Origin: Chiloscyllium plagiosum
Lineage: Eukaryota
Assembly (NCBI RefSeq): GCF_004010195.1
Contig: NW_025214845.1
Span: 1 to 52,688, forward strand
Length of the DNA: 52,688 nucleotides
Direction: 5' to 3'
Position numbers and translations under genes: made by a program
Notes under the pieces: model-generated
Databases searched by the model: none
Told to the model about the DNA's origin: nothing
What the model saw: the letters and a program-made list of their open reading frames with translations, nothing else
Shown: piece after piece, positions 16,257-43,650 of the stretch
Layout: the number at the start of each line of letters is the position of its first letter
How positions within the stretch are numbered: the first letter of the stretch is position 1

Positions 16257-16270
16257 CAGCTCACAGCCTT

Positions 16271-16365
16271 ATTCCTGATGAAGGACTTTTGCCGGAACAT
16301 CGATTCTCCTGTTCCTCAGATGCTGCCTAACCTGCTGTGCTTTTCCAGCACCACTCTCAACACCA
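16271..16365 (+). mobile_element. Penelope-derived pLTR fragment with degenerate hammerhead core
   Basis: attcctgatgaaggacttttgccggaacatcgatt...gatgctgcc...ctgctgtgcttttccagca; homologous to the right arm at 37713-37800. Confidence 0.75.
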
Positions 16366-17639
16366 ATTAACTACTGCCAAGGCTTCTTCAGCATTACCTT
16401 CCAAACTCACGACCTGCAAAGTCTGGGTGGGCAAGAGCAGATTTTTTTTGAATACTAACATCTTTAACTTCCCCTTAAAGTCAAATAACATCTTGTCTTT
16501 GATATTTATCACTGCCCCTTAATTATAGCTTATTCAAAATCTTGGAATTCACTGCCAAGCTACATTGTAAAAGTTCCTTAATTATAAGAACTGCAGTAGT
16601 TCATGAAAACAGTCCACTATTACCTTTTAGGGCAACTGGGATGCACAAAAACAGAGCTAATGCCTTGCATTTGGTGACCCTTTGTCAGAACAATGCTGGT
16701 CTTGCCAGCCTTTGCTGCTGCCTCTATGTTAAAAATCATCCAATCAGGCTTCTGTTTCATACATAGTACTCAAAATCACCAAAGATATTTTATTTAATTA
16801 GGACCGTGGCTAATTGTTCCTTCTCAGAGTGATGGAAGTAGATTAAATAGTAACTTGCAACCAGAAGTGGAAATAGAGTATACCTGGAAAGGGAAAAATT
16901 ACAAGGTTAAGAGATAAAACAGCACTGTGTTGATGGAAAATAGGTTATGTGAAAATCTCTTTCGAGGAATAGCTTGCGTCTACACTGTTGGAATCCAATT
17001 ATTTTTTTTAAAATTTACCCCTTTTAATCTTTCTAACGTATTCAACACTGTTAGGCACAATATTCTTCTAAAACCTCTATGCACAGTTCATGTCTGTAGC
17101 ACTGTTTTATTCTATTTCCATCTTGTCACATCGTAAATAATAACATCCAACAAATTTGTCCTTCCATACCTAAACATCACGAGTGCAACCTGGGTTACAT
17201 AATTACCCATGCCATTTTATAAATTATATCATATTATTTCAGCATGATGGTTATACACATTTTCCATTGTGTATTCAACATAAAAACCTGGATGATCACA
17301 TATCTTCTCCAAGTTAATGCCTGCAGAACCAAATCATCCTTTATGGCTGCTGCAATCACTTTATAGTATCTTATCCTTGGCTGCTACCTCATGCTCTATT
17401 GTTCAAGCTTTACCTTTGCTTCCTCCCCTATAGCTAATTTGTCACCCACCAGGGCACCTTTGTTTCACTTCTACAATATTGTCTGCCTTTTCCCCATCTG
17501 CCTTTCTTTCCTATAAAAGTCCAAATCCATATGTTTATAGATTCATGGCTACACTCCTCCAATGATAGAATTAGTAAGGTTATCATTTAAAAATCACAAT
17601 TACACAGGATGTTACAGTGATTCCATCACCTGCACTGAG

Positions 17640-18130
17640 GTACAGAAAAGATTTACAAGGATGTTGCCAGGCTTGGAGGATTTGGGCTATAGGAAGAGGC
17701 TGAATAGGATGCAGCTGTTTTCCCTGTAGCATTGGAGGCTGAGGGGTGATCTTATAGAGGCTTATAACATCATGAGGGGCCTGGATAGGATAAATAGACA
17801 AAGTCTTTTCCCTGGGGTGAGGCAGTCCAGAACTAGAAGGCATGGGTTTAGGGTGAGAGTGGAAAGATATAAAAGAGACCTAAGGGGCAACTCTTTCACA
17901 CACAGGGTGGTGTGTGTATGGAATGAGCTGCCAGAGGAAGTGGTGGAGGCTGGTACAACTGCAACATTTAAAAGGCATCTGGATGGGTGTTTGAATAGGA
18001 ATGGTTTGGAGGAATATGGGCCAAGTGCTGGCAAATGGACTAGATTAGGTTAGGATACCTGATCTGCATGGATGATTTGGACCAAAGGATCGGTTTGTGC
18101 TGTACATCTCTATGACTTTATGACTCTAAA
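17640..18130 (+). mobile_element. CR1 LINE 3' end
   Basis: ORF MRGLDR...HRVVCVWNELPEEVVEA...FKRHLD and (tatgact)n tail. Confidence 0.9.
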
Positions 18131-18479
18131 TCCTAGTTACCATTACCCCATCAAATTCAGGTAGCTTCCCACTGCCGCAAAGAACTGGATTCTCTTTCAA
18201 ATCCCTCCAATGACTCTCCTACTCATCAAATAACCCACTGTACTCCCCATCTTGGCCACATATTGCATGATCTCCATCAGCTCTACACCCTTGAATACAG
18301 TCTCATGTCCTCAATTGATTGTTGTCCTATTTTTCATTTCTCACACTTCTGTGTTTCCCCTTCCTGCCTTTCTTTCTCTTGTTTTATTTTCTTCTCTGCT
18401 TAGGACTGACTCTAGTTCATTCTTATATTTCAATCTGAGACATTTTTGAAGGCTGCACTAATGTTCCAAAATATTAGTG

Positions 18480-19990
18480 TATGGCAACATTGGAGCAGGA
18501 GTAGGCCATTCACCCAGGCCTGTTCCACTAAATTAGATCATAGCTGGTCATCTGTATCAATACAATTTTTTTGCTCTATCCCCATAACACTTGATGTTAG
18601 TAGTATCATGAAATCTATTAACCTATGCCTTGAACGTAATGCACACTACTCTGTGTGGCAGTAATTGTTTTAGACTAACACTTCCACTTTTCCAGCTAGG
18701 GGAAACATTGTTCCACACTCACCTTTTTATATTTCTAAACTTTAGTGAACATAGGCCCAGCCTCCTCAAGCAATCCTCCATCACAGGAACTAATCTGGTG
18801 AACCTCTGTGGAGTTCCCTCTACAGCAAGTATATCCTTCTTTACATAAGGTGACCAAATTACACATAATACTTCAGCTATGGTCTCACCAAGATTCAATA
18901 CAATTATACCAAAACATTTTTACTATTTACTCAAATCCTCTTATGATAAAAAACCAATATACCATTCACCTTCCAGATTGCTTGCTGCATTTATATGTCA
19001 GCTTTCAGTGATATGAACAAGGACCCATTTTCCCTTTGGAAAGGGAACACTACTCAATCTCTGAAGAAATACTATGCACCTCATTACTGCCACCAAAAGT
19101 GAATAATTTCTCATTTATTCATATTGAATTCCATCTGCCACATTTTCCCCAATCTTTCTGCCTATCTAAATCCTGTGGAAGCCTTTGTATCCTTCTCATA
19201 ATTTAGATTCCAACTTAGATATGTGCTATCGGCAAACTTAGAAATATTATGTTTGGTCCTCACATTCAAATCATTGACATAGATTGCAAACATCTTATAG
19301 TAACCCACTAGTCACAGCCTGCCAATCTGAGAATGAACTATTTATTCCTACTCTGTTTTCTTTCTGTTGACCAGATTCAATCCATGCTAGTATATTGCCC
19401 TTATCCCACTTGTTCTAATTTTCTTTACTAACATCCTACATGGAACATTATCAAACAGCTTCTCAGAATCCAAGGACATAACATTCACTAGTTCACTAGT
19501 TCTCCCCTACCAACTCAAAAAAAGCTCAAAAACTCCAAGTTTGTCAAATGTGATTTTCATTTCATATATCCATGTTCACTCTGACCAATTGGGTGATTAT
19601 CAGCTGTTTTATAGCATTCATTATTTTTCCTACCACCGATTCAGGCTAACACATCTATGGTGACTTATTTTCTCTCTACGGTTTTTCTTAAGTCATGGTG
19701 TTACAACTTGGGGGGTATTATACAGAATTGATAGAATCGCGAAAGATAATCACCAATGCGTTTTATCTCTCTACAGTCACCTCTTCAATACTCTAGGTTG
19801 TAGATTACTGAATCCCAGTAATTCTCCAGGACTACATTTTTTTTCAACCAACACTTTTTTTTCAGTTCTACGTTCTCATTAGTTCCTTGTAACTCTATTA
19901 TTTCAGGGAAATTCTTTTATGTTCTTATTCCCATTATAAATTCTTCTATCTGTCTGTCATGGACCTTCATTTGGCTTTCCTAACCTTTTC
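18480..19990 (-). mobile_element. Old degraded CR1 LINE
   Basis: 3'UTR hairpin region (gagcaggagtaggccattca) then RT remnants on minus (WQMEFN, KFAD). Confidence 0.7.
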
Positions 19991-22229
19991 CTATTTATAT
20001 ACCTATATAAGCTCTTACTGTCCTTTTTTTGTTTTTCGGTTGCGTTCATATTCTATTCTCCCTATATTGCAATCATTAAGTGTTTGCAACAAATTGTCAT
20101 GTACATGATTGCAAAATTTAGCATAGCTATTGAGATACAACAAAATGCAACGATCCAAATGCCTTGTCTGAATGGCTTTTCAGAGAGAAACAACCCTTGA
20201 ATGGCTAGATCAAATATGAGAACACTGCGATGTGGGCCCATAGCATTTAGTATGCAAAGTCCTCGCTAAATATTGGACACTCCCTTGATATCCTTCCTCA
20301 TTCCACTGTTCCGTTCCCGTTTCGCTGTCAAGGACTTAACAGAATATTATGCAATTCAGATGATTGAGTGACAGGGGTTAATGCTGTACTTTAACATTTA
20401 AGAATAACTCATTGATTACGAGTAACATAACCTCTCTGAAATTTGTCTGAGATAAGAATGGGTGATTCCGCATTTACTGCGAGGCTTTTTTTTTGCTCTC
20501 TGAAGATGGGGCGGATATAAAGCTTGTGTACTTAGACTGATTGCAACTACACTTGGAAATATGCTTTCGGTAAATCAGACATCTATTTATTTTGTGTCAG
20601 TCTTGTTTGGCCGGTATATCTTGGAACACATTAGAAATTACTCCATAGTTTTACCAAAAGAGTCATGTTTATGTGAGAAAAAGATATATACGGTATTTTC
20701 CCTTTGATCGCAGTGTCCCCCAAAAGAGTGATTCTAAAATATACTACATTGTGAAGCACAATAAAACAATTCTAAGCAATGATACATTACACTGAAAATA
20801 TTCACTGAACCAATTACTTTCCAGCTTTTGCCTTGCCGAACTTATTGTAGTGAAGACTCTTCATATTTTTCTTTGCTGCGCCCAGCAATTCATAAGTAAA
20901 CACAGCGCAATTAATGTGCAAACACTGAGATCGACCTCTGCATTTCAGTTCTGTTGACGTCCTAATGTTTACTGAAATTGACTGTTCTCTTGGAATACAA
21001 TTACACATGTTTTACGGTGAGATCCGAGTCTTCATTTCGTTTCCCAAGTACTGCATTGGAGGTAAAGAAACAGTCGCCCTTAACTTACTGAATCTCGAAA
21101 ATCATTCCCTGGTTCTCTTGTCTAGATCCTAAACGTAATACCTTGTTAGAGCTATTAATACGCCGAGAAGGTTCTCAAACGACTGCTGAGAAATCAACTA
21201 CAGGACGTGTTTTAACATTATGTTTAATTCTTAAAAACGATATAACTTCTGACGCGCCCTTTTAGTACTCTTTCAGTGTGCAGTCACCTGCTATATTGCT
21301 GAAGGGAGACACGAATTGGCAGTTAAACTACAGTGTCTACAATGAAAATCTGCTTAAAAAAACCTGACCCACGTTAATGTTTTAAAAAATAGAAAGAGAA
21401 TCCCGTACTTCGTGAATTCGACTACATCGCTATTGTTTAATAATCTTTATTCTGCACACTCACCCGTCCACTTTCAGATGATTAATCCACAAAAATGATA
21501 GACTGCACAATTGAAAGCGGTTATTGGCAGAAAGTCCAAGATCACAGCAAAAAAAAATCCGCCAAGAAACATGTTTACGTCGCATAAAAGGAAACCAGTT
21601 AAGATTTTAAAATATAACCGACACACTGTTAACCCCTTGAGCACTTTTCAGTAAAGTTACTCGGCTGGTCATGCGTGCTGCGGCTGTGCTCAATCAGCAG
21701 CGAAATCATCCAACTCACTGAAAATTTTCCAGTTTTGGAATGTCTGAGCAGACAGTAAGAACAACTTTCCTAATTAGTCTGATTACTCTCGATCATTTAT
21801 TGCGAGGTGTTTGCTGCATTTGTAAGATTTTTGACAACTAGTAATGTTCATTTTGAGTTGTAGGTTAGCTTGTTTGTAAACTAAACACTCGGATATGCTC
21901 TTGAGCTGCCCTACCGTCCAGGGCTGCGGACCAGGAGTTTGAAAGCTGGGATAGAGGTTGGAGGGCGCTTATCCATTGGGTAGGGAAACGATGGACCAAA
22001 TGCACTCCTACGATGTCATGTGTTTTTTTTCTATATTCCTAATAGTCGGTATAAAGTCACTTCAATGAATCTAAGTGATGCAATATGTGGGAGTAATCAG
22101 GTTTGCTGCGGGAGGGCTGTGTTTGCTACGGCTGTCGGGTTGATGGCGCTATGAGCTGACTCCTCTTTAGTAGGTTTCACGCTTCGCTAATACTACTCCA
22201 CAGGCGCCTACCTCTCACTCTCCCTTCGA

Positions 22230-22490
22230 GGAGGGGGGGGAAGGGGGGGGTGGGGGGAGGGAAGAGAGAGATTGCTTGTCAATAAACAAAACGTTTTTAG
22301 ATTATTACAAGGTCGCTCCCAGCCTTGAGCAAGCTCGTTCCCGAGTCCCAGCCCTACACATGAAGGCGGGACAAAGGCGGGGCAGCTTGACTTCGGCCAA
22401 TCGCAGAGTGCTCTCTTTTTAAAATTCCCTGTCCGTCACTCAGTTTCCTCTTCGTCAGCCTCCTTCGCCATATTGGGTAACTGAAAAAAA
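22230..22490 (+). promoter_or_regulatory. CDKN1B: CDKN1B core promoter / start of 5'UTR
   Basis: G-tract 22230-22262, forkhead-like ATAAACA 22282-22288, GC boxes ~22365-22383, CCAAT 22397-22401, TTTAAA 22418-22423, Inr-like TCAGTTT 22440-22446, then ttcgtcagcctcc..cgccatattggg as recalled for the human 5'UTR start. Confidence 0.8.
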
Positions 22491-22701
22491 AAGCCAGTTT
22501 TTTTTTCCGCCTTTACTAGAATCAGTTTTGACGAGCGATAGGTTGTAAACTGCTGTTGTTGTTAGCATTTTTGTTGTGGTTCGGTGCTTTGCAGCTTTCT
22601 GAAGAATTGCACGATATTGTTACATCGTGTAACCTTGCAGTTCTGCTGTCTGTGAGGCTTCGGACGATTTGCAGTGAGAGGGGGTACGAAGGGGAAAAAA
22701 A

Positions 22702-23182
22702 ATGTCAAACGTACGCATTTCTAATGGTAGCCCTTCGCTGGAGAGAATGGCAGCTCAGCAAGGAGGGCACCCGAAACCCTCAGCCTGCAGGAACCTTTTC
22801 GGTCCCGTAAACCACGATGAGTTGAACCGAGACTTACAAAAGAAACAGAAGGAGATCCGCGAGCAGGACAGGCGAAGGTGGAATTACGACTTCGAGAGGG
22901 ACAAGCCGTTGGATGGGAATTACAAATGGGAAGCGGTGGATTGCAAGGATGTGCCTAATTTTTACTGGGGTTCTTCGAGGGAGCAAGTGTCATCAGCGGA
23001 TTGCAGTGTGGATGTGAACGGGAACCATGCGATTGTTTGCGTAGGAACTTTGGCTCTGGGAAATTCAGGGGACACGCACTTAACGAATTCAGAGCAAAAG
23101 GACGTGGTTAAAGAGACAACTGAACATTTCACGGACTCAAAAGAGCAGTGCTGTAGTCCCCGAAAACGAGCTGCGTCAGTCG
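22702..23182 (+). CDS. CDKN1B: Cyclin-dependent kinase inhibitor 1B (p27Kip1), coding exon 1
   Basis: MSNVRISNGSPSLERM N-terminus, KPSACRNLFGP cyclin-binding motif, CDI domain WNYDF...PL.G.Y.W, RKR NLS half; phase-1 donor G|GTAAGT at 23182/23183. Confidence 0.97.
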
Positions 23183-23566
23183 GTAAGTGACAAAGATGCA
23201 CTCTCTTTTGGGAGCTGCAGGATCCATTTTCAAACGGACCTTTATGACCTTTTTCTTTTCCCGCAAAAAGAAGCTTTCACCACCAACCAGTGGTTTACTC
23301 CTTTATTTCCAGTGGACCTGCTTTTAAAATCGTGCAGTTCTTGGTCTGTTTGGGGTTAAGCATGAGTTCCCCTACGTTTGAAAAAGGCTACTGCAACTTC
23401 AAAGGCCTTTTAGAAAGATGAAGCAAACGGCTTTTTCCTCGTTCAACAAGCTTGAGATGTGGTTGACTAATACCCACCAGCACAAGTCTTCAATAGGAGT
23501 AGGAATGACCCTCATAATATACCATCATCCTTATTTCAATTTTTAACTAGCTTTTCTTGATTATAG

Positions 23567-23691
23567 ATGGATTTCCAGAAGCAAAAAGAGTCAACACAGC
23601 GACGGAGACAGACTGGTCAGCAAATTCTCCCAATATAAATGCATTAGAGAAAACGCCGAAGAAATCGATTTCGAGCGGGCATCAAACATAA
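23567..23691 (+). CDS. CDKN1B: p27Kip1 coding exon 2
   Basis: Acceptor ttttcttgattatag|; in frame gives (D)GFPEAKRVNTATETDWSANSPNINALEKTPKKSISSGHQT* with TPKK degron and terminal QT; 201 aa total; candidate donors at 23698/23699 and 23706/23707. Confidence 0.95.
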
Positions 23692-25261
23692 AACAAAGGT
23701 GACAAGGTAGTTACGATGTACCTTTTTCAATTGATTGTGTCCTCCCAAAATATCCTATAACGTAGCTAGCAACAAGACTGCATTGATCAATCGGCCTCAC
23801 TAGCCCAGGTTTGAAAGTGTATACAGGGTTGTAATGTCACTGCTGTTTCTTTGCTATATTTTCCTGAACGACACGTATGCACAGGTGATTATTTCCAGCT
23901 GCTTTCAAATAACTAGATACACTATTGCGTTCTGCACAAGAATCCTAACGTCTTCGGTGACCTTTCTTTCCCTGCCCAATATAGTAGATTGCTTTGCCCA
24001 AGTCTTGTCAATAAAGTAAGTCACAGGACTGACTGAAAATGTAGTACATTACGCGGGGGAGTGCGCAACCACAACAGTGGTGTGCCTTTGTAGGCTTTAT
24101 ACAATGAACATTTTTTTTTCTTTACGCCAACGTCCATCATAAATATAATAAAAGGAGAAATAATCACGATAAAAATGGATCACTAGAGCAAGTTGTACTT
24201 TATCTCCCCAGCTAAAATATCCAAGCAGCATTCAAAGTAACACTTGGGATGGAATACAAATTTGTAGAATAGCTGCTTTACAAACATGTTTAACGTTTCT
24301 CATTTTGGGACTCTAATTTCCCCTATGATTTTGCGCTGTAGTAAGATATGAGAGGAGGGAATATATACACAATGCACAAAATGAGGGGTAGGGTGGGGAA
24401 GCTACATTTTAAATGGCTAGTCTCAACAAAGTAAAACTTAATGGAGATTATTCTTATTTCTTGGCCTTGTCCACATTGGTAGCCATAGTAAAAGTAATGC
24501 ATTGAAAATATTGCCCACTTTGTGTGAAATACTGCATATGCTAAATAACTTTGTCTTTTGTGTCAGTTTCACATAGCACAAGATGTGATACCTCATGCAC
24601 CTTTTGTGCTGACATTTTAAATATCCTTTGTCAAAATACTTTTTTTTTTGCAGTTATGACTTTTCTTTAAATTGATAGATCTAACTAGTCAGATCCAAAA
24701 CCTCTAACATACTCATTTCGGTGACTTTCTGTTCAGTTAATGCTGCCAAACTTTATCAATTTGCCCCTCTCACTGCATCAGAAAACAAATCTGTTTCTTT
24801 TTTTAAAGAAAAGCCTAGGAGCATCAGTCCTAATTATATTTGGATTACCAAATAATACATGTTTATGCATTTGAAAATTATGGCTGCTAGTTAAATGTGG
24901 TTGTGTGTCCAATGGGATAAAGTCCCACCATGCTGACTGAAATGGATTTTTTGATTACTTCCAGGCAGAAGATACAACTTATCCAGCTGCTAGATTTTAA
25001 ATGAGATATGGCAATATCACAATAATAACTTGATTGTATCTGTGCACAAGTCTTAACACTACTTATGGTATTGGTTGGCTCAGCGTCCAGTTGAATAACC
25101 AATTGCAATTGCTTAACCCTTTTGCCAACTGTACCCTGTAATCAGCAGCTGAGTTGAAATTATCAGTGTGGCTATGCCAAATAGCATTTTAAGTAATTCC
25201 AATCATACATAATTACCAAACATTGTATTAATCTTTTTTACTTCGTATTTTTCCTTGTTAG

Positions 25262-26005
25262 ATATGAAGATCTTTTTTCCTTGTTCATCCATGGCAGTGC
25301 TTGATGAAGCGAGGACGATCTCCTCAGAGACAGACATATCGTTATCTCTCCAAGTGAGGAGAGCCCAGGCACTGAACTTGTGAACACTAAACCGCCTATT
25401 TTAGAGTGGATATAGCGCTGTGCAATTAGGTTCTTCCTTTATCACTTGGCTGATTTTACTACCTGTGTATATAGTTTTTTTTTTGTAGCACATAAACCAT
25501 TTTTGGTGGGGGAGGGGAGGGAGGGATGAGACGGGAAAATATTAAAACGCAGAGTTAGACAATGTATGACTTGAATAGTAGCAGTATAGTTTTCCAATGC
25601 AGTTTAGAAACTGCAAAGTTACAATACCTGTGTATTGTATGTTTAAAAGAATAAAAAAAAATCTAAAATGTACCTGTGTACATAACTTTGTAAAGACACT
25701 GAGAAATTATACTAACTTATTTATGTTGAAAAGAATTGTTTTTTTGAAATCTAGAAGATAATTTTCCGTTAAGCCAAAGTGGCATTCTTCATGTGCATTT
25801 GTAAATGCTTTATTGTAGATTTTCCCTTCCGTTTTTGCCTGTCATAATATAAGGCTATGCTTGAAAGAGAAAGCGTCCTGAGCCATTTTCTGCCTTAATA
25901 TTGAATATATTCCTCATTTTTGTTTTGTAACGTGTGAAGAGATGCTGACTTTGTCCCGCATCCTGATTTCAAATAAAGAAAAACGTACAATATACGTGTG
26001 TATAG
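25262..26005 (+). other. CDKN1B: CDKN1B exon 3 (3'UTR)
   Basis: Acceptor tttttccttgttag|; blocks tgcaattagg, tactacctgtgtatatagttttt, tgtacctgtgtacataact, aattatactaacttatttatgtt and aagccaaagtggcat match the recalled mammalian UTR; AATAAA 25972-25977. Confidence 0.88.
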
Positions 26006-26559
26006 CTAATTCACATTGCAAATGTCCAAGAAAGCGTTAAAGTAGCTAGTGCTACTACCTTAGTTAAGTTGAGGGATGTTTTGGTTTGCATAATGATTTG
26101 AAAATGATCTCGGGGTTTCTGTGATTGTAAATGTAAGGCTTATTTTGAGATGAGGCATTTTTAAGTGTCGATGCGAGCTACACCTAGTCAAAGAAATAAG
26201 TAAAAATGTTTAATGTTCCATATTTTCAGAAAACCGTTATAATTCCAAGGGTTTTATCCGCACCCTGAAACAGTTGCCTCTGATGCTTAAGACATTATTT
26301 TTAAATGATAAACGCATCTTCTTGGGTGTGATTTTTGAAGAGGGGATTTAGCGTGGCGGGGGAGTTGACAACAGAATGCCAGAGTGCTTAGGTCCTGTAC
26401 CTTATCTTCACCACCTATCTTCCCCCCTCAAAGGAAAAGCGAACCGACATGCATTTGAAAGCCTTATTTTAAAAAAATAACAGTAGCTGCAGAAACAATA
26501 GCTTTGTAAAACATTATCGCCCGCTAAGTAGGAGCCAGACACTCCCAGGAGCAGCTACA

Positions 26560-27050
26560 GTGTGTGTGGGAGAGGGGGAGCTCGAGCTCTGGAGCGGCTA
26601 GCGCTCTGTGGATGATTGACAGCTCGCGTACTAAAAAAAGCACGCCACGGTGTGGCGGCCAATGAGGGCGCGAGCTACTCCAACGTCAGCGCGCGCCTGG
26701 CCGTGTTTGTCTTTCAAAACTGTTGCCCCGCCCACTAGCCACAGTCGCGTTGGCCCACGCTCGAGGAGACGAAACAAACGGTTGGGAACGACACGATTCT
26801 ATTGGAGGACAAGAACGTCAATCAGCGAGAGGAGGCGTCCTTGTCGCGAGCGCGCACGCAGTTCGGAGAGAGGCCGTCCAACTTTTTGAATTCATATTTA
26901 AAACGACAATAACCGTTTCCCAAAGTCTATTTAAAGCTGCGCCAAAAAAATAGAAACCTTCACTTGCCTTTTTTATTGGTCTGTCTCCTGCAACGGTTAG
27001 ACCGAAATGATACATTTACAACGGCACGGCCGCTCGAATTTAGAAAACAA
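26560..27050. promoter_or_regulatory. CpG-island promoter-like element downstream of CDKN1B
   Basis: Very CpG-dense; TGATTGACAG 26613-26622, CCAAT 26659-26663, GC box 26725-26733, ATTGG 26801-26805, GTCAATCA 26817-26824, TTTGAA 26885-26890. Confidence 0.75.
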
Positions 27051-28362
27051 AATGACGATCATACAAAATAGGTCTGTCAATGTAGGCGGAGTGGAATGCG
27101 TTCTTTATATTTTTAAGAAAAAGCCTTAAGTGCGTTTAAGACAGCGAAGTGTGAATAAAATGTAATTTTCTACAGAGTGCAGTATGGAGCGGACCTTTTT
27201 TTAAAAAAGTGATGTTACAGTGCGGACAGGTTTAGATGGCCTCCATCCACCCTTTACGTTCCTTCACATGTTTCACAGCTGCTGCCCAGTGACTAAGTGA
27301 ATTGCCAATTTAAAAAAAAATCATTGGAACGATCACTCCACGCTGTCACATAGGAGCGGGGAAGTTGGTAAGTAGCTTGTTCTCATTTTAGAAGAAAGGA
27401 AAAGAAAAGGCCGCTATTAAAAAGCCATTTTACTCTTGCAGTAATTATGTTGTAATTAGTTATAATAAACACGTCTTACTTAACGAGACAACTTGCTTCA
27501 GCCTGCAGTAAATATTAGGCAGCGAAATGGAAACTAAACTGTATTTCATCTTCAACAATTCTCAGTGTAGACCTCAGCAAGGCAACCACAACGTTTGCAG
27601 TAGGTCTGCCTTTTTAGTGGTATACTGGTACACCCAGTACCTACATCCTAAATAATACCTGTTTTTTAAAAAAGGTACATGTACGTGATTGATGACTGGC
27701 TTTCGTGGTATGTTCCACAGCAAATTTAAATTTAATTTTCACCTACTTTTGCGCAGTCCTCATCAGTCTAACAAGATTATAGTGGCATAGATACTCACTA
27801 AAATGTGCTCTTGACGTTTTTTTTTCTTAAAAAAGCAACAAGTAAAATTGTGTAGCCCCATTTGTAGAAAGACAAGCCTATGCGTGAAATATACAAAGTA
27901 TCTGTTTCATATAAACTTGCCAATAGATAAGAGGAAGAACTCTCGTTTGGAGACCTCGTCTGCTTTCTCCAGGTGTAATCTATTTATTAATGTGAAAACA
28001 ACGCCATTCGCCTTTCATGAGTTTAACACAAACACAATTGAAGCGATCATATATAACACCATGCTGCAAGACATCTCAAACAGAAGGCCTGGTAATTTGT
28101 AAATCATTTCGCGAAGTATCAATCGAGCAGAACTCGTACAGAATTCTAAATCAATTGAAGCCTTCACTCAATCAATAACGACTTTTGTGGGGTTTATTTA
28201 TCTGCTCACTAGGAATAAAAATAGTGGTGGGTGGGGTGGAGCGTTAGTAAGTTATGGGATACTTAATGTCTGCCTGTAATGTTATTGATTAGCTAATCAA
28301 TTGGTTTATGATTATAAACTTGCACACAAAAAATCAGTTGGACTATGAGCTCTTATTTCGTA

Positions 28363-28467
28363 GAGGTAATATCCCTACCTCTGGACCAAGAGGCTCGGGT
28401 TCAAGTCCCACCTGACGCAGAGTAGTATAATAACAGCAGTGAACAGGTTGACTAGAAAATATCTAAG
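28363..28467 (+). mobile_element. Short tRNA-derived SINE (host of the fold-back insertion)
   Basis: ccctacctctggaccaagaggctcgggttcaagtcccacctg...gaacaggttgactagaaaatatc; same family as 14183-14302. Confidence 0.7.
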
Positions 28468-28591
28468 GTAAAAACAATGACTGCAGATGCTGGAAACCAG
28501 ATTCTGGATCAATGGTGCTGGAAGAGCACAGCAGTTCAGGCAGCATCCGAGGATGCTGCCTGAACTGCTGTGCTCTTCCAGCACCATTGAT
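28468..28591. mobile_element. Fold-back Penelope-derived mini-element with 16-bp TSD
   Basis: Perfect inverted arms 28507-28548 / 28551-28592; TSD ctagaaaatatctaag at 28452-28467 and 28592-28607. Confidence 0.9.
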
Positions 28592-31474
28592 CTAGAAAAT
28601 ATCTAAGTATACTTAAGTCCGGCTTGACATGTATCTCTACCTTTGGGCTAAAAGCGCCTGGCTCAAGTCCCACCTATAGATTTGATCAAGTTGATTAAAA
28701 ATATGGAAGTTTTAGATCGATATTAAAACATTAAACGTCGGCTGTCCAAATCTGGCACCACTTAACTATAATCTTCATGCAGAAAAAAAACACTACAGGT
28801 TATGCGTACTTGAACCAAGTATCACTAATTTTACCCGAATTAAAGGCCCTGCCGAATATTAACCTTTTTGTTGAATCGATATTAGGACATCCAATTCAAT
28901 TCTGTTTTCATAATACAATTATAGTCTCTCACCACATAACCACACATTGTTTACGACCCTGGCAGTGTTAAAAATGTTTTGGTATTCATGCATACACCTG
29001 TGACTCCATGTATTTTTACAGATTACACATATTTTGCATATACTTCACCATCAATTGTCATTCTTAAAAAAATGAAATTATTTGGAAAATGAAGCAAGTA
29101 TTTGCATTACATTTACAATGGAATGGGTAAATGGCGGTAAATGGGTTAAATTGGAGAATCGTATATTGTGAAAAGTGAACAGGTACAAAGACAGACTGAT
29201 AAAAGGCTGGAGTCTACATCAGGGACACAGGAGAAAAGTGGCAGATATATGTAACGCAAAACAATCAAGAGTGATTATTACAAGAATGATAGTTTGATTG
29301 GAGGATCGATTGAAATAATAAGATAATACAGAAATGGATGACTTCAGGGGTCTGGATGGACAAAAACCACAGAGAACCAAGGCTGGGATGAACTGATGGT
29401 TTATTTTCAGGTGGAGCAGAAAAAAAAGTGAGCCGCTGCGATGCTTTGGGTGATAAAACCAGACCGGTCTCCCAATACCATCCACGGCCAAGATTATTGA
29501 ACAGGAAGATTATGTAGGAAGACGCAGAAGAATAAATACAAACATGGACTCTTTCAGCTACAATGAGAGATTTAACACAGAGCGTTGTTTGGTTCGAGAA
29601 TAGAATTAGATTTCTATTAACGCGTTTCGTTGTTCCTTATGTATCCCGATCGGTTATCGGTAATGACTCATACACGTTAATTCTAAAATAAAAACCTTAT
29701 TTCTATACCATTATTTCTAAATTTAAAGGAAGGAGAGATATTATGTCTTATTTTCGATGGATTAACGTATCAAGTCAGAGGTCAGTCATATGCACTCAAT
29801 TCAACGCCATCACATATGGAAATAAAGTACAGAAACAATTTTTCTGACATTTGCTATCTAATCGGTATGGGACAGAGATGAAAATTGCTGTTAAATCATT
29901 AATTAAGAGAAAAAGAAAGGGAGGATCTTTCCCCCCCAGACAACAACGTTACATTGATCATTTTTTCTTGTTGGAGAACTTAGTCAATGCTCTAAAGACA
30001 TTTCTTAAATATCATTTAGGCCAGGCTAGTCTATCTCTGGTTACCTAATGGCATACATATAAATTCATACAATACAAAGCAAATTAAAGATGCATTAAGC
30101 TCCCAGGCAGGGGCAAAGATCATATAATCTAACTGTGGGAGTAAAATCATCGTTTGGAAATAAAATAGCTACCCAAGAAATTATGAATTATAACTACACC
30201 GGCTTTACCCATTTCAATCTCCAACTTTTTTTAAGTTGTGAAGGAAAATATCTGAAGCGATGAAAGCTGTGTCAGATAAGGTTGAGATAGATCTTAATGA
30301 TATTTCGTATTGATAGTTTATTATGTGGGGTGGGGGGGGGGGGGGGTGCCTTTGAAATTCCAAAATCGATGCAATGGAATATTGTCCATCTATGAATGAA
30401 TCATATTTCCAAACTAGATTCTATACCTAGTTTAAACATAATTTAAGAATTGATTATGCAAAATTTGTATGAAAACCTTTAATATGCTTTGATCCGCCAT
30501 GGTTAGTAAATTATAAATGTGAAACTTCATAAGAACGGTGCCAGTTAACTGATTCTATGTAGGTAGACTACTTTTACAAATCTGAAAGCCTGTTCCTAAA
30601 GTGTAAATCTCATTGCAACTGAAATGATACTCCGGCTAAATGCTACTTATTATAGGAAACAGTTCGAGTCAATTTCTTACTGTCGAAAGACAGTCAAGAA
30701 TCCATCAGACCTCATCCTGTTTCACTGTTGCAGATTATGTAACGAAATACAACAACGTGGATGAAGCCATCCAGCACAAAGTGAATGAACTATAATCTAG
30801 TTACTGTTGGTTTTTAGTAGATTAGGATTTCGATGACTGTACACCATACAGGTTTGATATAACTCAGTTGAAAACCACATTAAAAGCGGCAATTGAATCC
30901 AAAGAAACAAAGTTGACTAAGCTCGAAAGTAGAATCACATCACTTATTTAACCTCTGAAGAATGCATATTCTACAACTGCTCTTCCGTGCATTTCTATAA
31001 CATTAAACAACTTACAATTCCAGAGTGAATGCATAACACTCTACTGTTTACCGCACATATTTGCACGTGCTCTGCGCCTATTTCCACCTCTTAAACCGAC
31101 ACATAGACATCAGAAAAAAATCCCTCCCCACACAAATATTATCCAGTCTCTCCTAAACATACAATCAACAAATGCGTAGTAGAGAATCAGTTTCCGTTTT
31201 AAATATTTGCTCCATTCACGAAACATCAATTACTATGTCTAACGTTTCTACAATAAAGACGAAAAACTTGCCTTCCCGTTTCTCACAATGTGTGTGGGGA
31301 TGAATTTCCGCCAAGGTTTTTCCGCTCTCTTATACAGAAATTTACTCCACTTCCATTTTACTTAGGAAATCTTTGCGCAATCAATTTGCATTCCCGAACA
31401 ATTGGATGGTTTAGACACAAAGAAATTTGAGTTTTAACTGAAGATAACATTGTCACTCTAGGGGTATAAAAAGA

Positions 31475-31862
31475 TGGTAGCCATGACTTGGAGGTACCGG
31501 TATTGGACTGCTGTGGACAAATTTGAAAACCACACACTGCCGGGTTATAGTCCAACAGGTTTATTTGGAAGCACTAGCTTTCTAAGCGCTGCTCCTTCCG
31601 GATTTAACCTCTGAAGAATGCACATTCTTCAACTCTTCTTTCGTGCACTTCTATAACATTAAACAACTTACAGTTCTAGAGTGAATGTACAACACTCAAC
31701 TATTTACCGCACATATTTCCACATGCTCTGCGTCATTTTCAACCTCTTAAACGACACAAACATCAGAAACATTTCCCTAGAAAAATTACAACCACCTGAT
31801 GAAGGAGCAGCCGTGCTTCTAAATAAACCTGTTGGACTATAACTGGTGTTGTGATTTTTAAC
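31475..31862. mobile_element. Fold-back mini-element with 12-bp TSD enclosing captured local DNA
   Basis: Inverted arms (gttatagtccaacaggtttattt / aaataaacctgttggactataac); TSD ggtataaaaaga at 31463-31474 and 31863-31874; interior 31602-31778 duplicates 30946-31125. Confidence 0.88.
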
Positions 31863-31884
31863 GGTATAAAAAGAAACATTGAGG

Positions 31885-32825: not shown

Positions 32826-32916
32826 GAAGAACGCTGGTCAACCAGATACAACTGATGATCTTTGAAGCAAAAACCTAAACGTGCCCAAGGGAAAAAGCAA
32901 TGATATTTAAGCGAAG
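32826..32916 (+). other. Candidate non-coding exon (91 nt)
   Basis: Acceptor gtccttttcacgtag| and donor AAG|gtgagg; stops in all three frames. Confidence 0.4.
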
Positions 32917-37260: not shown

Positions 37261-37635
37261 ATGATAGTCAGTTTAGCAGATTACTAATTCAGCTGTTATG
37301 AGTGGTTGGCAATCAGTATGAGATTTCCTTGCTTATGTTTGCATATTTATGCGAACATCTCTCACCACAACTCTTATTTTGCTTTTTCCTTTCAGATGGC
37401 CAAGAACTGCAGTCTGCCCAGACAAGGCAGAGAGCAATAGGTGGAAGAGCAAGATGACAGTGATGATGAATAAACCCCATCACTTATCACACTTGATCTC
37501 TCACGGTCTCTTAGCTATCAGCTCATACACTGATACTGCACATAATTTAGATAGCTTATAAGTGAGATATGTACATGTTGAGGCACTGTGCATAACTGGT
37601 TGGTAGCCAGATCAGGGGACAAAGATATTGCAGGT

Positions 37636-37845
37636 TGAGTGTATGATGCTGGAAAAGCACAGCAAATCAGGCAGCGTCCGAGGAGCAGGAAAATCTGTTT
37701 CAGGCAAAAGACATTCCTGATGAAGGGCTTTTGCCTGAAATGTCGATTTTCCTGCTCCTTGGATGCTGCCTGTCCTGCTGTGCTTTTCCACCACTGCACT
37801 CTCGATTCTAATCTCCAGCATCTGCAGTACTAACTTTCACCTAAG
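37636..37845 (+). mobile_element. Fold-back Penelope-derived mini-element with TSD and hammerhead motif
   Basis: Arms ~37636-37710 / 37728-37800; TSD gatattgcaggt at 37624-37635 and 37846-37857. Confidence 0.88.
37713..37748 (+). ncRNA. Minimal type I hammerhead ribozyme motif, CpG-decayed
   Basis: attc-CTGATGA-a-gggc-tttt-gcct-GAAA-tgtc-gatt: core boxes, helix II and GUC cleavage triplet. Confidence 0.6.
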
Positions 37846-38199
37846 GATATTGCAGGTGCCAGACGCCCTAAGGGCATATTCTTTTGCCTAGGACTCGTGC
37901 ACTTTGGGACATTATCTTTGCACCATAAGAATCCCTTGTTAATAAATATATATCAATTGTGTTATTTATATTCAGATGGTGGATATTGTGATCTCACTTG
38001 TGGTCATTTGTGTATATGACTCCTGCTCTGGTTTCTTGTGTTCTAAGACAGCATTCATCCATCCAACACTTCTATTCTGCCAGATGTTTGACTCATTTGT
38101 CAACTGGATTGAAGCAATGCTGATTATGAGGCAGAATGAAGTTGTGCTTCTTGAACAAGAATGGCAAGACAGCCTTCACATCCACCAGCATACACCACA

Positions 38200-38830
38200 A
38201 GGTTAAAGCAAAGACAAATGGAATGTTGGTCTTTATTTAGAAGAAATTAGAGTTTAAAATAGGAAAGTCTTGCTAAATCAATAAAAGGCAATTATCTGAC
38301 CACATATTGTGAATAGTTTTGGGCACCTTTTAATCAAGGAAAAGATATATTGGCATGAAAGGCAATCCAGAGAAAGTTGATTAGGCTGATCCTGGATATG
38401 GAGGGACTGTAATAAGAGAAGTTGAGCCTGTATTAATTGCATTGGCTGGGGGGGGGGGGGGGGGGGAAGGGAGAGAGAGAGAGGAGAAAGAGGTGGAGAA
38501 GGAAGAAAGTTGACCTCATTGAAGTTTACACGATTCTTGACAATAGTTTGTTTTGTGCTGGGCTTCTATACCAGTTGACCTCTTGTTCCTCCTCTGCTTC
38601 CATAAGTATAAAAATGAACCTACTTTCCAACACATTTTTCAGTTTTTAAGAAAAGCAGCTCTGAACAAGAGTCATTCTGGACTCAAAGTTAATTTTCTTT
38701 TTTCACATGTGCTGCCAAATCGGCTGAGTTTCTCCAGCATTTTGTTTGCTTAAGATTTGCTTAAGTTTAGATGTGGAAAAGTTGTTTCTCCTTGTGTCTA
38801 GGACCAGATAGCACAATCTCATAATTAAGG
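38200..38830 (+). mobile_element. Degraded CR1 3' region interrupted by a G/purine tract and a pLTR fragment (~38655-38750)
   Basis: gcaatccagagaaagttgattaggctgatcctgg, gacctcattgaagtttac, then tagatgtggaaaagttgtttc resuming after the insert. Confidence 0.6.
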
Positions 38831-39373
38831 TCTTTATGATCATTAAAGGTCCTCAAGCCTCAACTCATCCCCTGATTTTTTTTTGTTAATCCATTGAACC
38901 AAGAGCGACCATGTCTTTAGATTCTAGGTCATCAGCTGTTGAATTCCCTTCAGAAATCTTTACATCTCTTTATTTTCCCCTCAGGTGCTCCTTAAAAACC
39001 TCTCTTTGATCAAGCTTTTGATCACGTATTAAATCTGAGAGACTCTGGCAAGTTTTTTTGACAATGTTTGAGGAGCATTTTGGGATGTCTTGAAATAAGT
39101 TCTATAAATGCAAATTATTTGCATTAAGCATGGATTGGGAAATTAATTTATACTGCTCACTTACAATTTATGATGAAGATCGAAATTGACTCTTTTTATA
39201 TCTGATCTGAAGCACATTTTTGGATAGGGTCTGGGCAGGTTTGCATTGCATCTTTGTGTCAATGGTTAAGCTGACCTTTGAACTACTCAATACTGACACT
39301 CAGTACATGAAATGGAAAGATGAAGTAAAGCATTTGTCGAGTTAAACCTCTCCCTGAACCCATTCAGATCACC

Positions 39374-39540
39374 ATGTAGGAACAAATTACTGCAGATGCT
39401 GGAACCTGTATTGAAAACAAATGCTGGAGATCAAAGCGGATCAGACAACATTCAGAGAGCTATCTCGACTCGAAACATTAGTTTTGCTCTCTCTCCATGG
39501 ATACTGTCTGACCCGCCGTGATCTTCAGCATTTGTTGGTT
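39374..39540. mobile_element. Fold-back Penelope-derived mini-element with 14-bp TSD
   Basis: Arms aacaaatgctggagatca..gcggatcagaca / tgtctgacccgccgtgatcttcagcatttgtt; TSD ccattca(g/a)atcacc at 39360-39373 and 39541-39554. Confidence 0.8.
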
Positions 39541-40904
39541 CCATTCAAATCACCGATTAACGGAACGACCTTGTTACAAAAACCGTTGTTGGAATGTGCT
39601 AATGTCCAGGGTCTGACTTCGTGTTTTAATACACGAGATCGTGTCGATGTTGGTGGTAGCAATATCTTACGGTTCCTGCGATTTTTCGAGTCGAACAATT
39701 AGTTTATCCAGTTTTATTAAATAGTTATTCTTGCGAATATTTAAAAACTACACAAATGCGGCGAACTGGTGACGGCTTTTCCAGATTTGTTTACATTTTG
39801 CATAATTTTATTTCAAATAATGAGACGGGAATTCGTTCTGTCGGATCTATTTTGCATAGATTAAACAAAATCAGGTAATGTCTGGTATATATTAAGCAGT
39901 TTTGTAGAATTTTAAAAATGGTGCCCTGTTTACTTAACCTGATTATTTCAACTACAAAATGTAGTGAAACCGTGAAGTATCATTTCGAATGTGTGACAAT
40001 TTGAAATTTTCAATATCCTTGACGGGACACTGTACGTTTTACGTTAACCCATAAAAAATGCCACATTTCGTAAATATCACATTTTTAAAATGCATAATTT
40101 GCATTATTTCTATGCCTTACCATGAACGATCTTTTGGCCGTTGTGCTTCAGGTTTATGGTTTGATTCAGCCATAGATTCTTTATGTCAATGAAATCCAGT
40201 TGGTTTCGTTTTGTAACATGTATACTGTGGAATAAATGGAAAGACGTTACAGAATGTTCTTGGTTTGCTCTTCTTTCATGGAATATCTTAAAATATCCTC
40301 TTCCGTAATAATTGCGGGCTCATTTCCAGTAATTAGTGAGTTGTTGAAATTCATAGAGTACCCCGAAGGTTCTCCTGCTACTTCCTTTACCGTCATTGCA
40401 GAATCCTCTATTGTCCCATAATTCCCGCCAGAAACTGCTGTATCTAGCGGACCAATAGTGACTGGCAACATAAATCCATTGCAGTCCACCCAAATGGACA
40501 AGATTTCTCGAAAATGTGAATGAAAAATTCCTTGAAAAGTTGGAGTTTTAAAATAAATTAGCATTACACAAAAAAAACTACGACCGAGTGGGTTGGTTGT
40601 GTGACCAACTGTCACTCCTGGGTTAAGTATACCTAAATAAGGTATGACAAATAAATAGTTTCATTCGGTCCATAGACTTCCCATCAATCTTCAAGTTAGA
40701 AGACCCCACGGAAAGTACTTGGGCGTGGAATAAGTGAACGGGAGTACCTGTCATAGATACTGGCAGATGTACAAACAAAAAGCGTGTATTTGGAGTTTAG
40801 TGGCACCAAGGATCTAAGCATTAGTAGAGATTATAGCTATGTAAAGATACCAACAAAATATTGCTAATTGCTTTGATACTGGTCACTAGTTTTTGAAGGG
40901 CAGA

Positions 40905-41612
40905 TGTTAGGACAAAGGGTAAACCCCTCTGCTAATTTAAACACAGAGAAGCTCACAAGCAGTAATGTGTCAAATTTTGAGAAGCACAGAACTATTCTAG
41001 AGGTCACCATTTAAAATAAAAATTAAAAGTTTTAGTCTTTAAGTCCAACAAAGAGCATTAAAACAGCTATTTACAACTCCTTTCTCTTAAACTTATGTTA
41101 CCTCCCACCACTCTACAATACTAATCCAATTAAAAAAGTAAACCCCAGTTAAGATTTATCTAAAAAACGCAATTCAAAACCAGCCTCATCTGTCCATTTT
41201 GCTCTGCATTTTCCTGGGTCATCTCTTCTTCAGTCTTCTGCTGCACAACTTTTCTTACGGGTAGGTACATTTCAGAGAGCTATTTGGCTAGCAGCCTATA
41301 TTTGATAGTATTCCAATTCTCCCACTAACTGTTCAAAATGTCTGGTTTTATACCCCAAAACATCAGATCATTTCATTGGTTAGATGTCATCCCAAACAGT
41401 AACGTTCAATTTGATTGGATTTTGGTATCTACGGCATAATTTAAACTAATTGGCTGAATTTGAATTTGTTTTAGTTCCATGGCAATACAATTCCATCTAT
41501 TTGTTTCAACCAAATGTTGCATTTTGACATTGTTCAGCACACTCTGTGCTTTCAGTCAGTCCTTGCTAGCTTCTTCTCTTTCTTAAAGGTACAGTACACA
41601 CCTACATCTTCA
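40905..41612 (-). mobile_element. Possible solo LTR
   Basis: TG...CA termini, ~700 bp, three CCAAT boxes then TATAAAA on minus (~41350); no convincing TSD. Confidence 0.4.
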
Positions 41613-42901
41613 AATTACAAAGAAATTGCAAGGAGAGAGAGCGTGAGTCTTCCCATTCTACTACTTAAATTGATTTTCCTGCTCTATTCAAAAACTGTCT
41701 TCCTGCAATGCATTTCAATTGTATATTCCTCTGTCTGACATCTGGTTGAATAACCTGCAGACAACTTTGCTCTAATATATGAAACTTCCAGATTTTGGCT
41801 CTGACTGATTTTTGCTTATTGAGATTTTCATGAGCTTGACTCAAGCTGATCATGTGATTACTGCAGACATATTAAGTATTCAACTTTTTCCCCTTTTTTG
41901 TTTCAACCAATTTATTCCATGAAAGGTCTTGGGTGTTAAAATTAGAAAATAGAGATTGGTAGTTCATTTTTACTAGTGTCATAACTATCATAATTCTAAT
42001 TTAATAACCTTTTGCTTAAAGCAAAATGCTGTAGATGTTGGTGATCTGAAATAACAACAGAAATTGATGTAGAAACTCAGCAAGTTTGATAGTGACTGTT
42101 AGAAACAACACTAAAGTTTCAAGTTCAATATAGCTCTTCCATAGAACTCAGTGGAAGTACATTTACCTATTGAGGCCCATAAATTTGGTTATTTATATAT
42201 TGTCTTGTAAACACCATTTAATTTGAAGTATAAAATAAAGCTTGAAATTATCCCAACTTCCCCACTCTTAACAGAATAATAGGCACATGAATTAGACTTG
42301 CAGTAAAATATAATGGTGAATTGTCAAAAAAATGACAAATAACTAATGAAGAGCAGAAATGAAAATTATATGTAAAGAATACATTTATTGAGATGCTAAA
42401 TATTATATTGAAGCACTGTTGAGACAGTTTAGCAGTGACAAGCATTGGTGGAAAATTGAACCTATGGCCTCATTATCAAATGGACAAGCTGCGGACCCTT
42501 AATGATTTTCCTCTTAGCTTCAGCCAGAGGTTCTCTGGTAAGTCCTTAAGGAAGAGGTGACTATGAAGGTTTATTCAGAACAGAGTGTGACCAGGAAAGG
42601 CCTGTTGAGAAGAATAGCAAATTGGGAGAGGGAAATAGGGGCATGGATAGAGGATGGTAATTAAGGTCATTCTTGGAAAGAGGTACAAATAATGGGCCAA
42701 CATTAAATTGAAGTTTGGAAGTATCCTGAAGAAGGGTTATTGGAGCCGAATCATTCATTCTGATTTCTCTTCACAGATGCTTCCAGACGTGCTGAGGTTT
42801 TGTGTTCTTATTTTAAGTTGAGGTTTTACTATTAGGAATACTATCGACCTTCCTACCTCTTATTTAGACAAATATTTTGAAGAAAACATTATATTTTGGA
42901 A

Positions 42902-43650
42902 ACAAAAACAGAAATTGCTGGAAAAGCTCAGCAGGTCTGGCAGCATCTGTGAAAAGAAATCAGAATTAACGTTTCTGGTCTGGTGACCCTTCCTCAGAAC
43001 TGATGGTAGCTAGGAAAATGTCAGTTTTTATGCAGAGGATAGAATAGTGGGGAGGGGCTAAAGAGTAAACAATAGGCAGGGATAGAGCCTAGCAAGAGAG
43101 AACAGTTGGTTAGACATAGGAGTGGACAATGATCTGGCTAGGAGGAGACATAGCTGTTCATGGAGATAGTTAGTGGCTGACAATGGGTTGTATGTAATAG
43201 TAGACTATGCGATCACAAGACCTGGTGTGTGAGGGTGGAAGCTGGAACATAGGAGAGTTCAAGCTCTAAAGTTATTGAACTCAATATTGAGTCCTGAAGG
43301 CTGTAGGGTTCCAAGTGAAAACAAGGTGTTCTTCCAGCTTACGTTGATCTTCACTGGAGCACTGCAGCAAGCCTGAGACAGAGATTTTGACCAGAAAGCA
43401 GGGTGGTGTGTTGATGTGGCAGGCAAGCAGGCAGGGGAAAGGGAGTAAGGCGTACTCCTTACCCTCTTTACCCCCCCCCCCCACCCTATATTCTGCATAG
43501 AAAACAACACTTTCCTAGCTACCATCAGTTTTGAGGAAGAATCACTGGACCTGAAATGTTAACTCTGATTTCTCTGCCAGACCTGTTGAGTTTATCTAGC
43601 AATTTCTGTTCTTGTTTCTGATTTGCAGCATCCACAGTTCTTTGGGTTTT
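42902..43650 (-). mobile_element. 5'-truncated Penelope-like element: GIY-YIG C-terminus, pLTR and inverted pLTR
   Basis: Minus 43420-43259 encodes, with a frameshift, HINTPPC...SGLLQCSSEDQRKLEE/..SLGTLQPSGLNIEFNNFRA*; arms 42902-43045 and 43485-43650 are inverted copies. Confidence 0.88.
42959..43003 (-). ncRNA. Minimal type I hammerhead ribozyme motif in the Penelope pLTR
   Basis: Minus: tcagtt-CTGAGGA-a-gggtc-acca-gacca-GAAA-cgtt-aattctgat; helix I with bulge, helix II, palindromic ACGU helix III, GUU triplet. Confidence 0.65.

Follow-up and report, generated by a model that had tools for sequence, protein, structure and literature searches.

Why does one 52,688-nucleotide (nt) stretch of the genome of the shark Chiloscyllium plagiosum (positions 1 to 52,688 of contig NW_025214845.1, RefSeq assembly GCF_004010195.1; hereafter the window) carry five short insertions in which two copies of one sequence face each other as inverted arms, and how were these hairpins made? 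A reading of the sequence alone had described them as fold-back mini-elements tied to Penelope-like elements (PLE) and bearing hammerhead ribozyme cores. We put a probability of about 0.7 on the reading that the hairpins are very short insertions of an autonomous, endonuclease-bearing PLE, probably of the Neptune clade, made by double priming. The anatomy of the insertions, their target-site duplications (TSDs), their link to a PLE endonuclease, their abundance and the variety of their joints were observed directly in the window and in public sequencing runs. Overall the finding is real and mostly ordinary: the layout is known, and what the locus mainly adds is a rich natural data set.

Self-comparison of the whole window and a repeat finder recovered five inverted-arm insertions, here named A to E in coordinate order, just where the sequence-only reading had placed them. 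A search of the window with arm profiles returned ten paired arms, four single arms and one weak extra match, although the profiles were built from these same arms and the recovery shows only that little was missed. The extra match (6494-6536, expectation value 0.03) is perhaps one more decayed stub. In each pair, one arm ended in a tail (40 nt in A, 48 nt in B, 44 nt in C, 42 nt in D and 31 nt in E), and an inverted, 5'-truncated copy was found in 5/5 elements. The earlier description of a long tailed arm with a shorter inverted partner held for A to D and was reversed in E, where the tailed arm is the shorter (~186 nt against ~530 nt). Arm-to-arm identity was 41/41 in A, 54/61 ungapped columns in B, 62/72 in C, 37/44 in D and 130/155 in E. 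The arms of A, C, D and E and the four single arms align as related subfamilies and B is a separate family, in keeping with the proposal of several sequence-distinct subfamilies. The five elements had five different junctions, among them a 3-nt overlap in A, two extra bases in C, a small palindrome in E and a 187-nt filler in B.

Positions within arms are counted from C3 of the hammerhead core as zero, with the predicted cut at +28 to +30. In A, the tailed arm (28468-28553, minus strand; tail 28468-28507) starts at about +39 and is without a hammerhead, and the tailless arm (28551-28591, plus strand) is identical to it over its whole length, overlapping it at 28551-28553. In C, the tailless arm (37636-37710, minus strand) starts at +11, in stem II, and the tailed arm (37713-37845, plus strand) starts 4 nt before C3 (37717), with the predicted cut after 37744. 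The tailed arm of D (39374-39465, minus strand) has its 5' end downstream of the cut site, and the tailless arm (39467-39540, plus strand) starts in the loop or stem II. Element E consists of a tailless longer arm (42899-43428, minus strand; C3 at 42997, predicted cut between 42968 and 42967) and a tailed shorter arm (43464-43649, plus strand) with a mutated first hammerhead box and an 11-nt deletion. Between them lies a small, imperfect palindrome (43434-43473, about 40 nt; -21.6 kcal/mol as RNA), apparently a local copy-back of the right arm's start. The tailed arm of B (31475-31598, minus strand) starts at +5, inside the first hammerhead box, and keeps stem II and the GAAA box; its tailless arm (31789-31862, plus strand; C3 at 31796) begins at the front edge of the hammerhead and has a 12-nt deletion, with loss of the GAAA box and of the 3' strand of stem II. 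The structure of B is more than a simple hairpin, as the 187 nt between its arms (31602-31788, plus strand) match local DNA on the same strand (30946-31141, the probable template, ~330-530 bp left of the insertion site) at 163/196 columns. Judged by this identity, which resembles the 89% between the B arms, the filler is probably about as old as the insertion; it likely arose by a template switch of the nascent cDNA onto the local flank. All four single arms that had been proposed were found: a tailless arm of the A/C group (16270-16361, plus strand; C3 at 16275, GAAA box mutated), a tailless arm with both boxes mutated (38655-38752, plus strand), an old tailed arm with the first box mutated (42019-42147, minus strand) and an arm of the E group that starts at C3 (42724-42806, plus strand; C3 at 42726). 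An assembly artefact was ruled out by the TSDs, by arms in B to E that are 84-89% alike and by opposite-strand joints in two independent runs.

Four insertions had clear TSDs of 12-16 bp, as had been claimed, and all four abut the arm ends: 16 bp in A (28452-28467 and 28592-28607; 16/16), 12 bp in B (31463-31474 and 31863-31874; 12/12), 12 bp in C (37624-37635 and 37846-37857; 12/12, or 14/15 if extended) and 14 bp in D (39360-39373 and 39541-39554; 13/14). Of 150 random position pairs, searched over a 15-base range against the 40-base range allowed for the elements, one scored as high as the TSD of D or higher. The imperfect duplication that had been noted for E amounted to an 8-base exact match (42889 and 43650), equalled by 3/150 random pairs and so not above chance, and no TSD above the same comparison was found for the four single arms. 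Element A is flanked on both sides by tandem copies of a repeat (28372-28460 and 28625-28700) that contains a B-box-like motif and that we take to be SINE-like; a third copy (14212-14301), tried as an empty site for A, was too diverged.

The tie to PLE comes from E. On the minus strand its tailless arm runs from a 52-residue frameshifted peptide through ~260 nt of untranslated sequence to a degenerate hammerhead motif and the conserved arm. The peptide (43260-43418) is, in agreement with the earlier claim for the longest copy, the C-terminal part of a PLE-type GIY-YIG endonuclease and looks Neptune-like from its relatives. It matched 2/6 candidate proteins, P0001 (53% identity) and P0002 (58%), both of which start with a GIY-YIG motif, and a protein search with it gave 20 matches at an expectation value of 0.001 or less, the best at 2e-7. 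In Pfam, P0001 and P0014 scored weakly for GIY-YIG, below the curated cut-off (2/8 proteins scanned), and the fragment of E had no match in any of three frames. Two of the 20 matches were not full PLE proteins, namely P0008, an unrelated repeat protein, and P0004 (P0022 lay outside this check). P0004 is a receptor gene model with an endonuclease-like tail (a 7-transmembrane receptor fusion) and P0014 has a PLE endonuclease end fused to a LINE reverse transcriptase (RT); both are probably gene-prediction chimeras. Since the endonuclease end is joined to a hammerhead-bearing arm in E, the arms are read as PLE 3' ends, E itself being one. Its place in the Neptune clade is probable and is indicated via relatives rather than by the window copy itself: a C-x2-5-C-xx-C linker between RT and endonuclease has been assigned to Neptune and Nematis (PMC8557442), and P0012 (57% identical to the E fragment) has a C-x4-C-x2-C motif ahead of its endonuclease, the window copy being cut before the linker. 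Among the five elements the endonuclease link was seen in E only, and no copy in the window reaches far enough upstream to include the RT. As to whether the other arms are pseudo-long terminal repeats (pLTRs) of their own autonomous PLE, A, C and D align with the E arm, and for the separate family B an autonomous partner was not found.

How could such an element leave hairpins? One hairpin would be one insertion event, its inverted structure being built at insertion. An RT-endonuclease, likely a dimer, would nick both target strands 12-16 nt apart, and each free 3' end would prime its own antisense cDNA, with the 30-48 nt tail arising from priming at a distal RT start site and the tailless arm from priming at a proximal one. 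Synthesis of both cDNAs would in most cases end after 40-135 nt, often within the hammerhead or just ahead of it. The two would then be linked head to head, either through a few microhomologous bases or by patch synthesis (with 187 nt from neighbouring DNA in B, 2 nt in C and the small palindrome in E), after which repair would leave the TSD. Single arms may be events in which one priming survived. The template would mostly be uncut RNA, and the hammerheads in the copies would be passengers that decay. Two start sites, extension of both strands, a predicted dimer and insertion without cleavage are taken from a study of a related element, Poseidon PAc of Anolis carolinensis, in which both strands are nicked and extended, RT has two start sites, one at either boundary of the tail, and insertion in vitro proceeds normally with hammerhead mutants (PMC11167929); that cleavage is dispensable there fits the arms here that extend across the cut site. 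The hammerhead and tail of PAc overlap the start of the open reading frame (ORF; PMC11167929), whereas E has its hammerhead ~260 nt past the stop of the endonuclease and has relatives that look Neptune-like. That double priming operates in vivo, that the cDNAs are then joined and why they stop early we infer.

The two arms of an element provide the evidence that separates this reading from fold-back copying, the mechanism implied by the earlier description, in which a single tail-primed cDNA folds (or the RT switches strand), copies itself backwards and ends at the second nick, before the tail is reached. The tail is present only on the tailed arm, and the tailless arm carries 5' sequence without a partner in B (~5-12 nt), D (~24 nt) and E (~360 nt). 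As each arm of B, D and E holds sequence that the other lacks, neither arm was copied from the other, and unless three later deletions are assumed the two cDNAs were therefore primed separately. In its favour, fold-back copying has the identical arms and 3-nt self-complementary centre of A, the full containment of the tailless arm in its tailed partner (A and C), the junction palindrome of E and a published proposal of self-priming (PMC3846280); the centre of A would, however, need a 2-nt loop, and the tail boundary, which corresponds to a second RT start site in vitro (PMC11167929), is neither needed nor explained by it. We consider fold-back copying quite improbable, and the sequence-only reading probably named the wrong mechanism. 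The arms could also be remnants of longer inverted insertions whose centres were deleted afterwards. Long palindromes are generally unstable, and internal deletions do occur in the right arms of B and E. Yet A is young and already short (arms 41/41, TSD 16/16), single arms are as short as paired ones, and deletion gives no reason for ends to lie at the front edge of the hammerhead, so that we hold this explanation to be very improbable.

Twin priming of L1 elements offers a likeness to the double priming that we favour: a second nick primes a second cDNA, and an inversion joined by microhomology results. L1 inversions usually do not duplicate the same stretch, whereas the two cDNAs here span one and the same arm, so that two RNAs, or one RNA with two pLTR copies, are required. 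A literature search found no PLE paper that uses the term twin priming. The layout itself is already published for PLE. An inverted truncated copy with a 30-40 bp tail and TSDs has been described (PMC8557442; PMC3846280), as have junction palindromes and unrelated DNA between solo pLTRs (PMC3846280). The complex insertions of endonuclease-positive PLE in these papers share with the present elements the head-to-head pLTRs, the tail at one end, the TSD, the junction palindrome, the captured unrelated DNA and the strong 5' truncation. Those here differ in being often only 120-220 bp as a whole and without an ORF, in tails of up to 48 nt, in tens of thousands of contigs per run and in TSDs of 12-16 bp compared with 8-10 bp in rotifer PLE (PMC8557442; PMC3846280). 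The earlier reading was right about the inverted pLTRs with a tail and about extreme truncation. The literature search returned no report of PLE mini-hairpins in sharks or of 5' ends mapped to the hammerhead, though Repbase and Dfam lay outside it and the result is no proof of absence; the accessible part of PMC6155905 holds nothing on sharks.

What part do the hammerheads play? In 12 arm stretches (all but the left arm of D, which starts past the motif), both hammerhead boxes were present in two (right arm of C, left arm of E), one box in seven and none in three, and only the right arm of C had both boxes together with a 4-bp stem II (1/12). Two-box motifs with a stem II are expected at 0.02 per shuffled window (100 first-order resamples). 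Even in the right arm of C the closing pair is G-U and the helix-III letters are non-palindromic, against the consensus features in PMC4209133. Rfam at an expectation value of 1 or less named no hammerhead family in the window; all three of its matches lay below the gathering score, and the two microRNA matches among them reflect the hairpins; a microRNA precursor was rejected. Isolated hammerhead stretches folded no better than shuffles (5/5; z -0.85 to +0.95), a null that is expected for minimal motifs and is evidence neither way. Taken together, the letters point to hammerhead motifs that are real but decayed, with no fully intact hammerhead in any arm; the earlier claim of cores in several arms was not confirmed as worded. 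The motifs resemble the minimal hammerheads of metazoan PLE in their two boxes, an unpaired base before stem II, a short stem I, palindromic letters in place of helix III (left arm of E) and a mostly solo occurrence in truncated copies (PMC4209133). In Schistosoma, hammerhead pairs on opposite strands lie 100-700 bp apart (PMC4209133). The window copies differ in being all decayed and known from sequence, and the accessible part of that paper does not map 5' ends to the motif.

The arm ends were placed relative to C3 at +39 (tailed) and ~+43 (tailless) in A, +5 and -7 to -3 in B, -4 and +11 in C, ~+40 to +51 and +12 to +17 in D (ranges, being placed on a reference of another subfamily) and ~-68 and ~-430 in E. 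None of the ten paired arms starts at the predicted cut site, and arms bounded by that site were rejected as a candidate. Seven of the ten cross it, which means that the template was uncut, or re-ligated, RNA. Five of the ten start in or just before the core, and the 5' starts of the right arms of C and B and of the single arm at 42726 lie within 7 nt of C3. The earlier idea that inversion often falls at or near the motif was not confirmed as worded, no inversion point lying at the predicted cut site. These results also bear on the suggestion of a retrozyme-like class, in which hammerhead-processed monomers or circles are reverse transcribed and inserted. Non-LTR retrozymes are likewise non-coding, related to pLTRs and furnished with a type I hammerhead (PMC7229834; bioRxiv 10.64898/2026.07.22.740005); they derive from PLE pLTRs and were reported in the one chondrichthyan sampled (bioRxiv 10.64898/2026.07.22.740005), one head-to-tail joint row exists in the genome-wide data given below, and cDNA derived from a circle would also cross the cut site. 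They are, however, direct tandem repeats of 150-450 bp with a hammerhead in each unit and a circular RNA (PMC7229834; bioRxiv 10.64898/2026.07.22.740005), whereas the copies here are dispersed inverted pairs with TSDs that end in a PLE tail; none of the eight tandem rows of the window is a hammerhead array, and just 1/12 arms has both boxes and stem II. Of the explanations considered, we judge this the least probable.

Are the five hairpins typical of the genome? We aligned four public runs (of 24 listed) to the left arm of E (42890-43455) at 80% likeness; this genome-wide test covers the E-type family, the A/C, B and D families with the shortest hairpins lying outside it. The DNA runs aligned 64,003 (X1) and 62,743 (X2) contigs, and the RNA run X21, a poly(A) single-cell library, 965 reads; run X22 aligned 0 reads and is no test. 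Four listed rows of loose ends at 42899-42904 held at least 8,105 contigs in X1, the top row with a tail-like consensus, and the tail is family-wide: beyond 42899 a tail-like consensus follows in 3,749 (X1) and 2,716 (X2) contigs and in 199 RNA reads. Among 479 different joints, the best 15 had 1-4 contigs per run each and none had RNA support. No master mini-element was evident among these 15 joints of the E-type family, and the idea of a single short structure repeated at many loci therefore found no backing. RNA reads were near-equal on both strands at the peak (449 against 387), as for passive read-through in host transcripts, and in the poly(A) library X21, which is no test of circular RNA, read starts and ends did not pile up on the E arm. 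Mismatch places numbered 45 for A>G, 43 for G>A, 21 for T>C and 25 for C>T (at 80% likeness, with many copies pooled). A 23-nt arm motif had no match in viral contigs and none in metagenome contigs. In many contigs of both DNA runs, 43385-43389 was joined to 43353-43356, a 36-nt step back in the endonuclease region with varied letters between; a subfamily may have an internal repeat at this point, or the window copy may have a gap. At its peak, depth over the arm exceeded that over the endonuclease 29-fold in X1, 27-fold in X2 and ~115-fold in X21, which suggests that most copies in the genome are stubs, although this ratio is confounded by the likeness of each subfamily to the reference and depth does not measure copy number. 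Very short two-armed insertions in their thousands would form a natural record of where PLE RT starts, stops and joins in vivo, steps that one in-vitro study has left open.

That confounding weighs against the double-priming reading, and so do several other points. One joint reached a depth of 444 in X1 (21 in X2) and another 415 in X2 (0 in X1); set against depths of ~7-24 for single-copy pieces, the two would correspond to no more than a few dozen copies out of tens of thousands. The joints considered are the best 15 of 479 and from the E-type family only, and a common joint may be under-counted as contigs break in repeats. A and C, with the tailless arm wholly inside the tailed arm, fit fold-back copying equally well, and the asymmetries of B, D and E could have arisen by later deletion at the centre of a palindrome. 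Junction palindromes are read as self-priming in PMC3846280, and self-priming remains the main mechanistic rival. The in-vitro data stem from a Poseidon element with its tail in the ORF start, and not from Neptune (PMC11167929). Finally, 5' ends pile up at the front edge of the hammerhead, which is not expected from random truncation.

This pile-up is the sole unexplained part of the picture. Six of eight opposite-strand joints (among the best 15 of 479) start one arm at 42994-43005, C3 +3 to -8, and the partner arm at 42939-42964, 3-28 nt past the cut, and a head-to-tail joint row runs from 43000 to 42899 (3 + 1 contigs); rows were picked by support and show a hot spot, not its share. RNA-read depth drops 8-fold from bin 42985-43003 (97) to bin 43004-43022 (12), and DNA depth at the same step falls 1.8-fold (X1) and 2.6-fold (X2), with a ~6-fold fall one bin further. 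The tendency hints at an RNA 5' end or a splice site. An RNA that starts there would let priming on the leading pLTR copy run off like strong-stop DNA; a splice acceptor also fits, as does arrest of the RT at a protein-bound or folded hammerhead. For an acceptor speak a pyrimidine tract and AG in E (43000-43018, minus strand), ending at 43000, three bases before the core, an AG at the same place in the single arms at 38655 (38655-38660) and 42020 (~42145-42150), and the intron of Drosophila virilis Penelope, which begins 46 bp after the start site (PMC2377424) and ends at the 5' end of helix I (PMC4209133); the right arms of C and B, however, are without that AG, and none of the best 15 of 479 joint rows jumps from 42999 to a donor.

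We tentatively suggest, with the odds somewhat against it, that the template RNA has a fixed 5' end (a transcription start site or a 3' splice site) 2-8 bases before the hammerhead and that the stubs are strong-stop-like run-off products. The PLE protein would prime at the tail sites of the leading pLTR copy, ~100-135 nt from the RNA end; two products joined head to head would give a mini-hairpin and one a solo stub, and stubs that are themselves transcribed could spread as a SINE-like class. If this is so, inverted pLTRs in PLE generally would be integrated strong-stop DNA, and such products would rank among the most frequent kinds of insertion in this shark genome. A boundary that marks the RNA 5' end would tell what the inverted pLTR is and where the ribozyme lies in the transcript, both open questions for the telomerase-related PLE class. 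An unlikely alternative, on our weighing, is a non-autonomous SINE-like class, in which stubs are transcribed as a 100-135 nt RNA from the front edge past the tail and mobilised in trans, hairpins still being built at insertion but from this short RNA. It would account for the six of eight front-edge joints, the head-to-tail row, the 8-fold RNA drop, the near-C3 starts of the right arms of C and B and of the 42726 single arm, and the ~28 to 1 ratio of arms to endonuclease, and rotifer pLTR sequences alone suffice in trans (PMC3846280). Against it, the DNA contig step is small, with the larger fall one bin on, both E arms extend upstream of the hammerhead, and run-off on the 5' pLTR copy of a full-length RNA, a splice site or RT arrest would give the same boundary. 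RNA also lies about equally on both strands, though a poly(A) library would miss a short RNA.

The insertions had further been read as seeding DNA that forms double-stranded RNA around a cell-cycle gene, a link that the data leave unsupported. The window holds two coding exons of a CDKN1B/p27-like gene (22678-23691, plus strand; context only), the first at 22678-23190 with a Pfam CDI domain (expectation value 3e-20) and the second near 23572-23691 with a stop near 23689; CDKN1B is the name that we presume from this domain. The nearest hairpin, A, lies 4.8 kb past the stop, the 16.3-kb single arm lies 6.3 kb before the first coding exon, and poly(A)-signal candidates at 24010-28214 are all left of A. 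Hairpins inside introns would be natural double-stranded RNA, and nothing ties them to CDKN1B; the family is so abundant genome-wide that no special cause is needed for nine pieces in 52 kb. None of four long ORFs tested between 29 and 41 kb had a Pfam match. A GC-rich island at 26500-26999 (53% against 33-39% around it), ~3 kb past the CDKN1B-like stop, is possibly a promoter or exon. Nested and scattered LINE fragments, which we take to be CR1-like, lie at 44391-51211 and at 7375-7962, 10044-10326, 15227-16172 and 17639-18131, with 3' ends that turn up repeatedly over the window; the fragments at 45-50 kb gave RVT_1 and AP-endonuclease matches in 3/8 ORFs tested. A local direct duplication of ~500 bp (11170-11661 and 11935-12441) has 78% identity.

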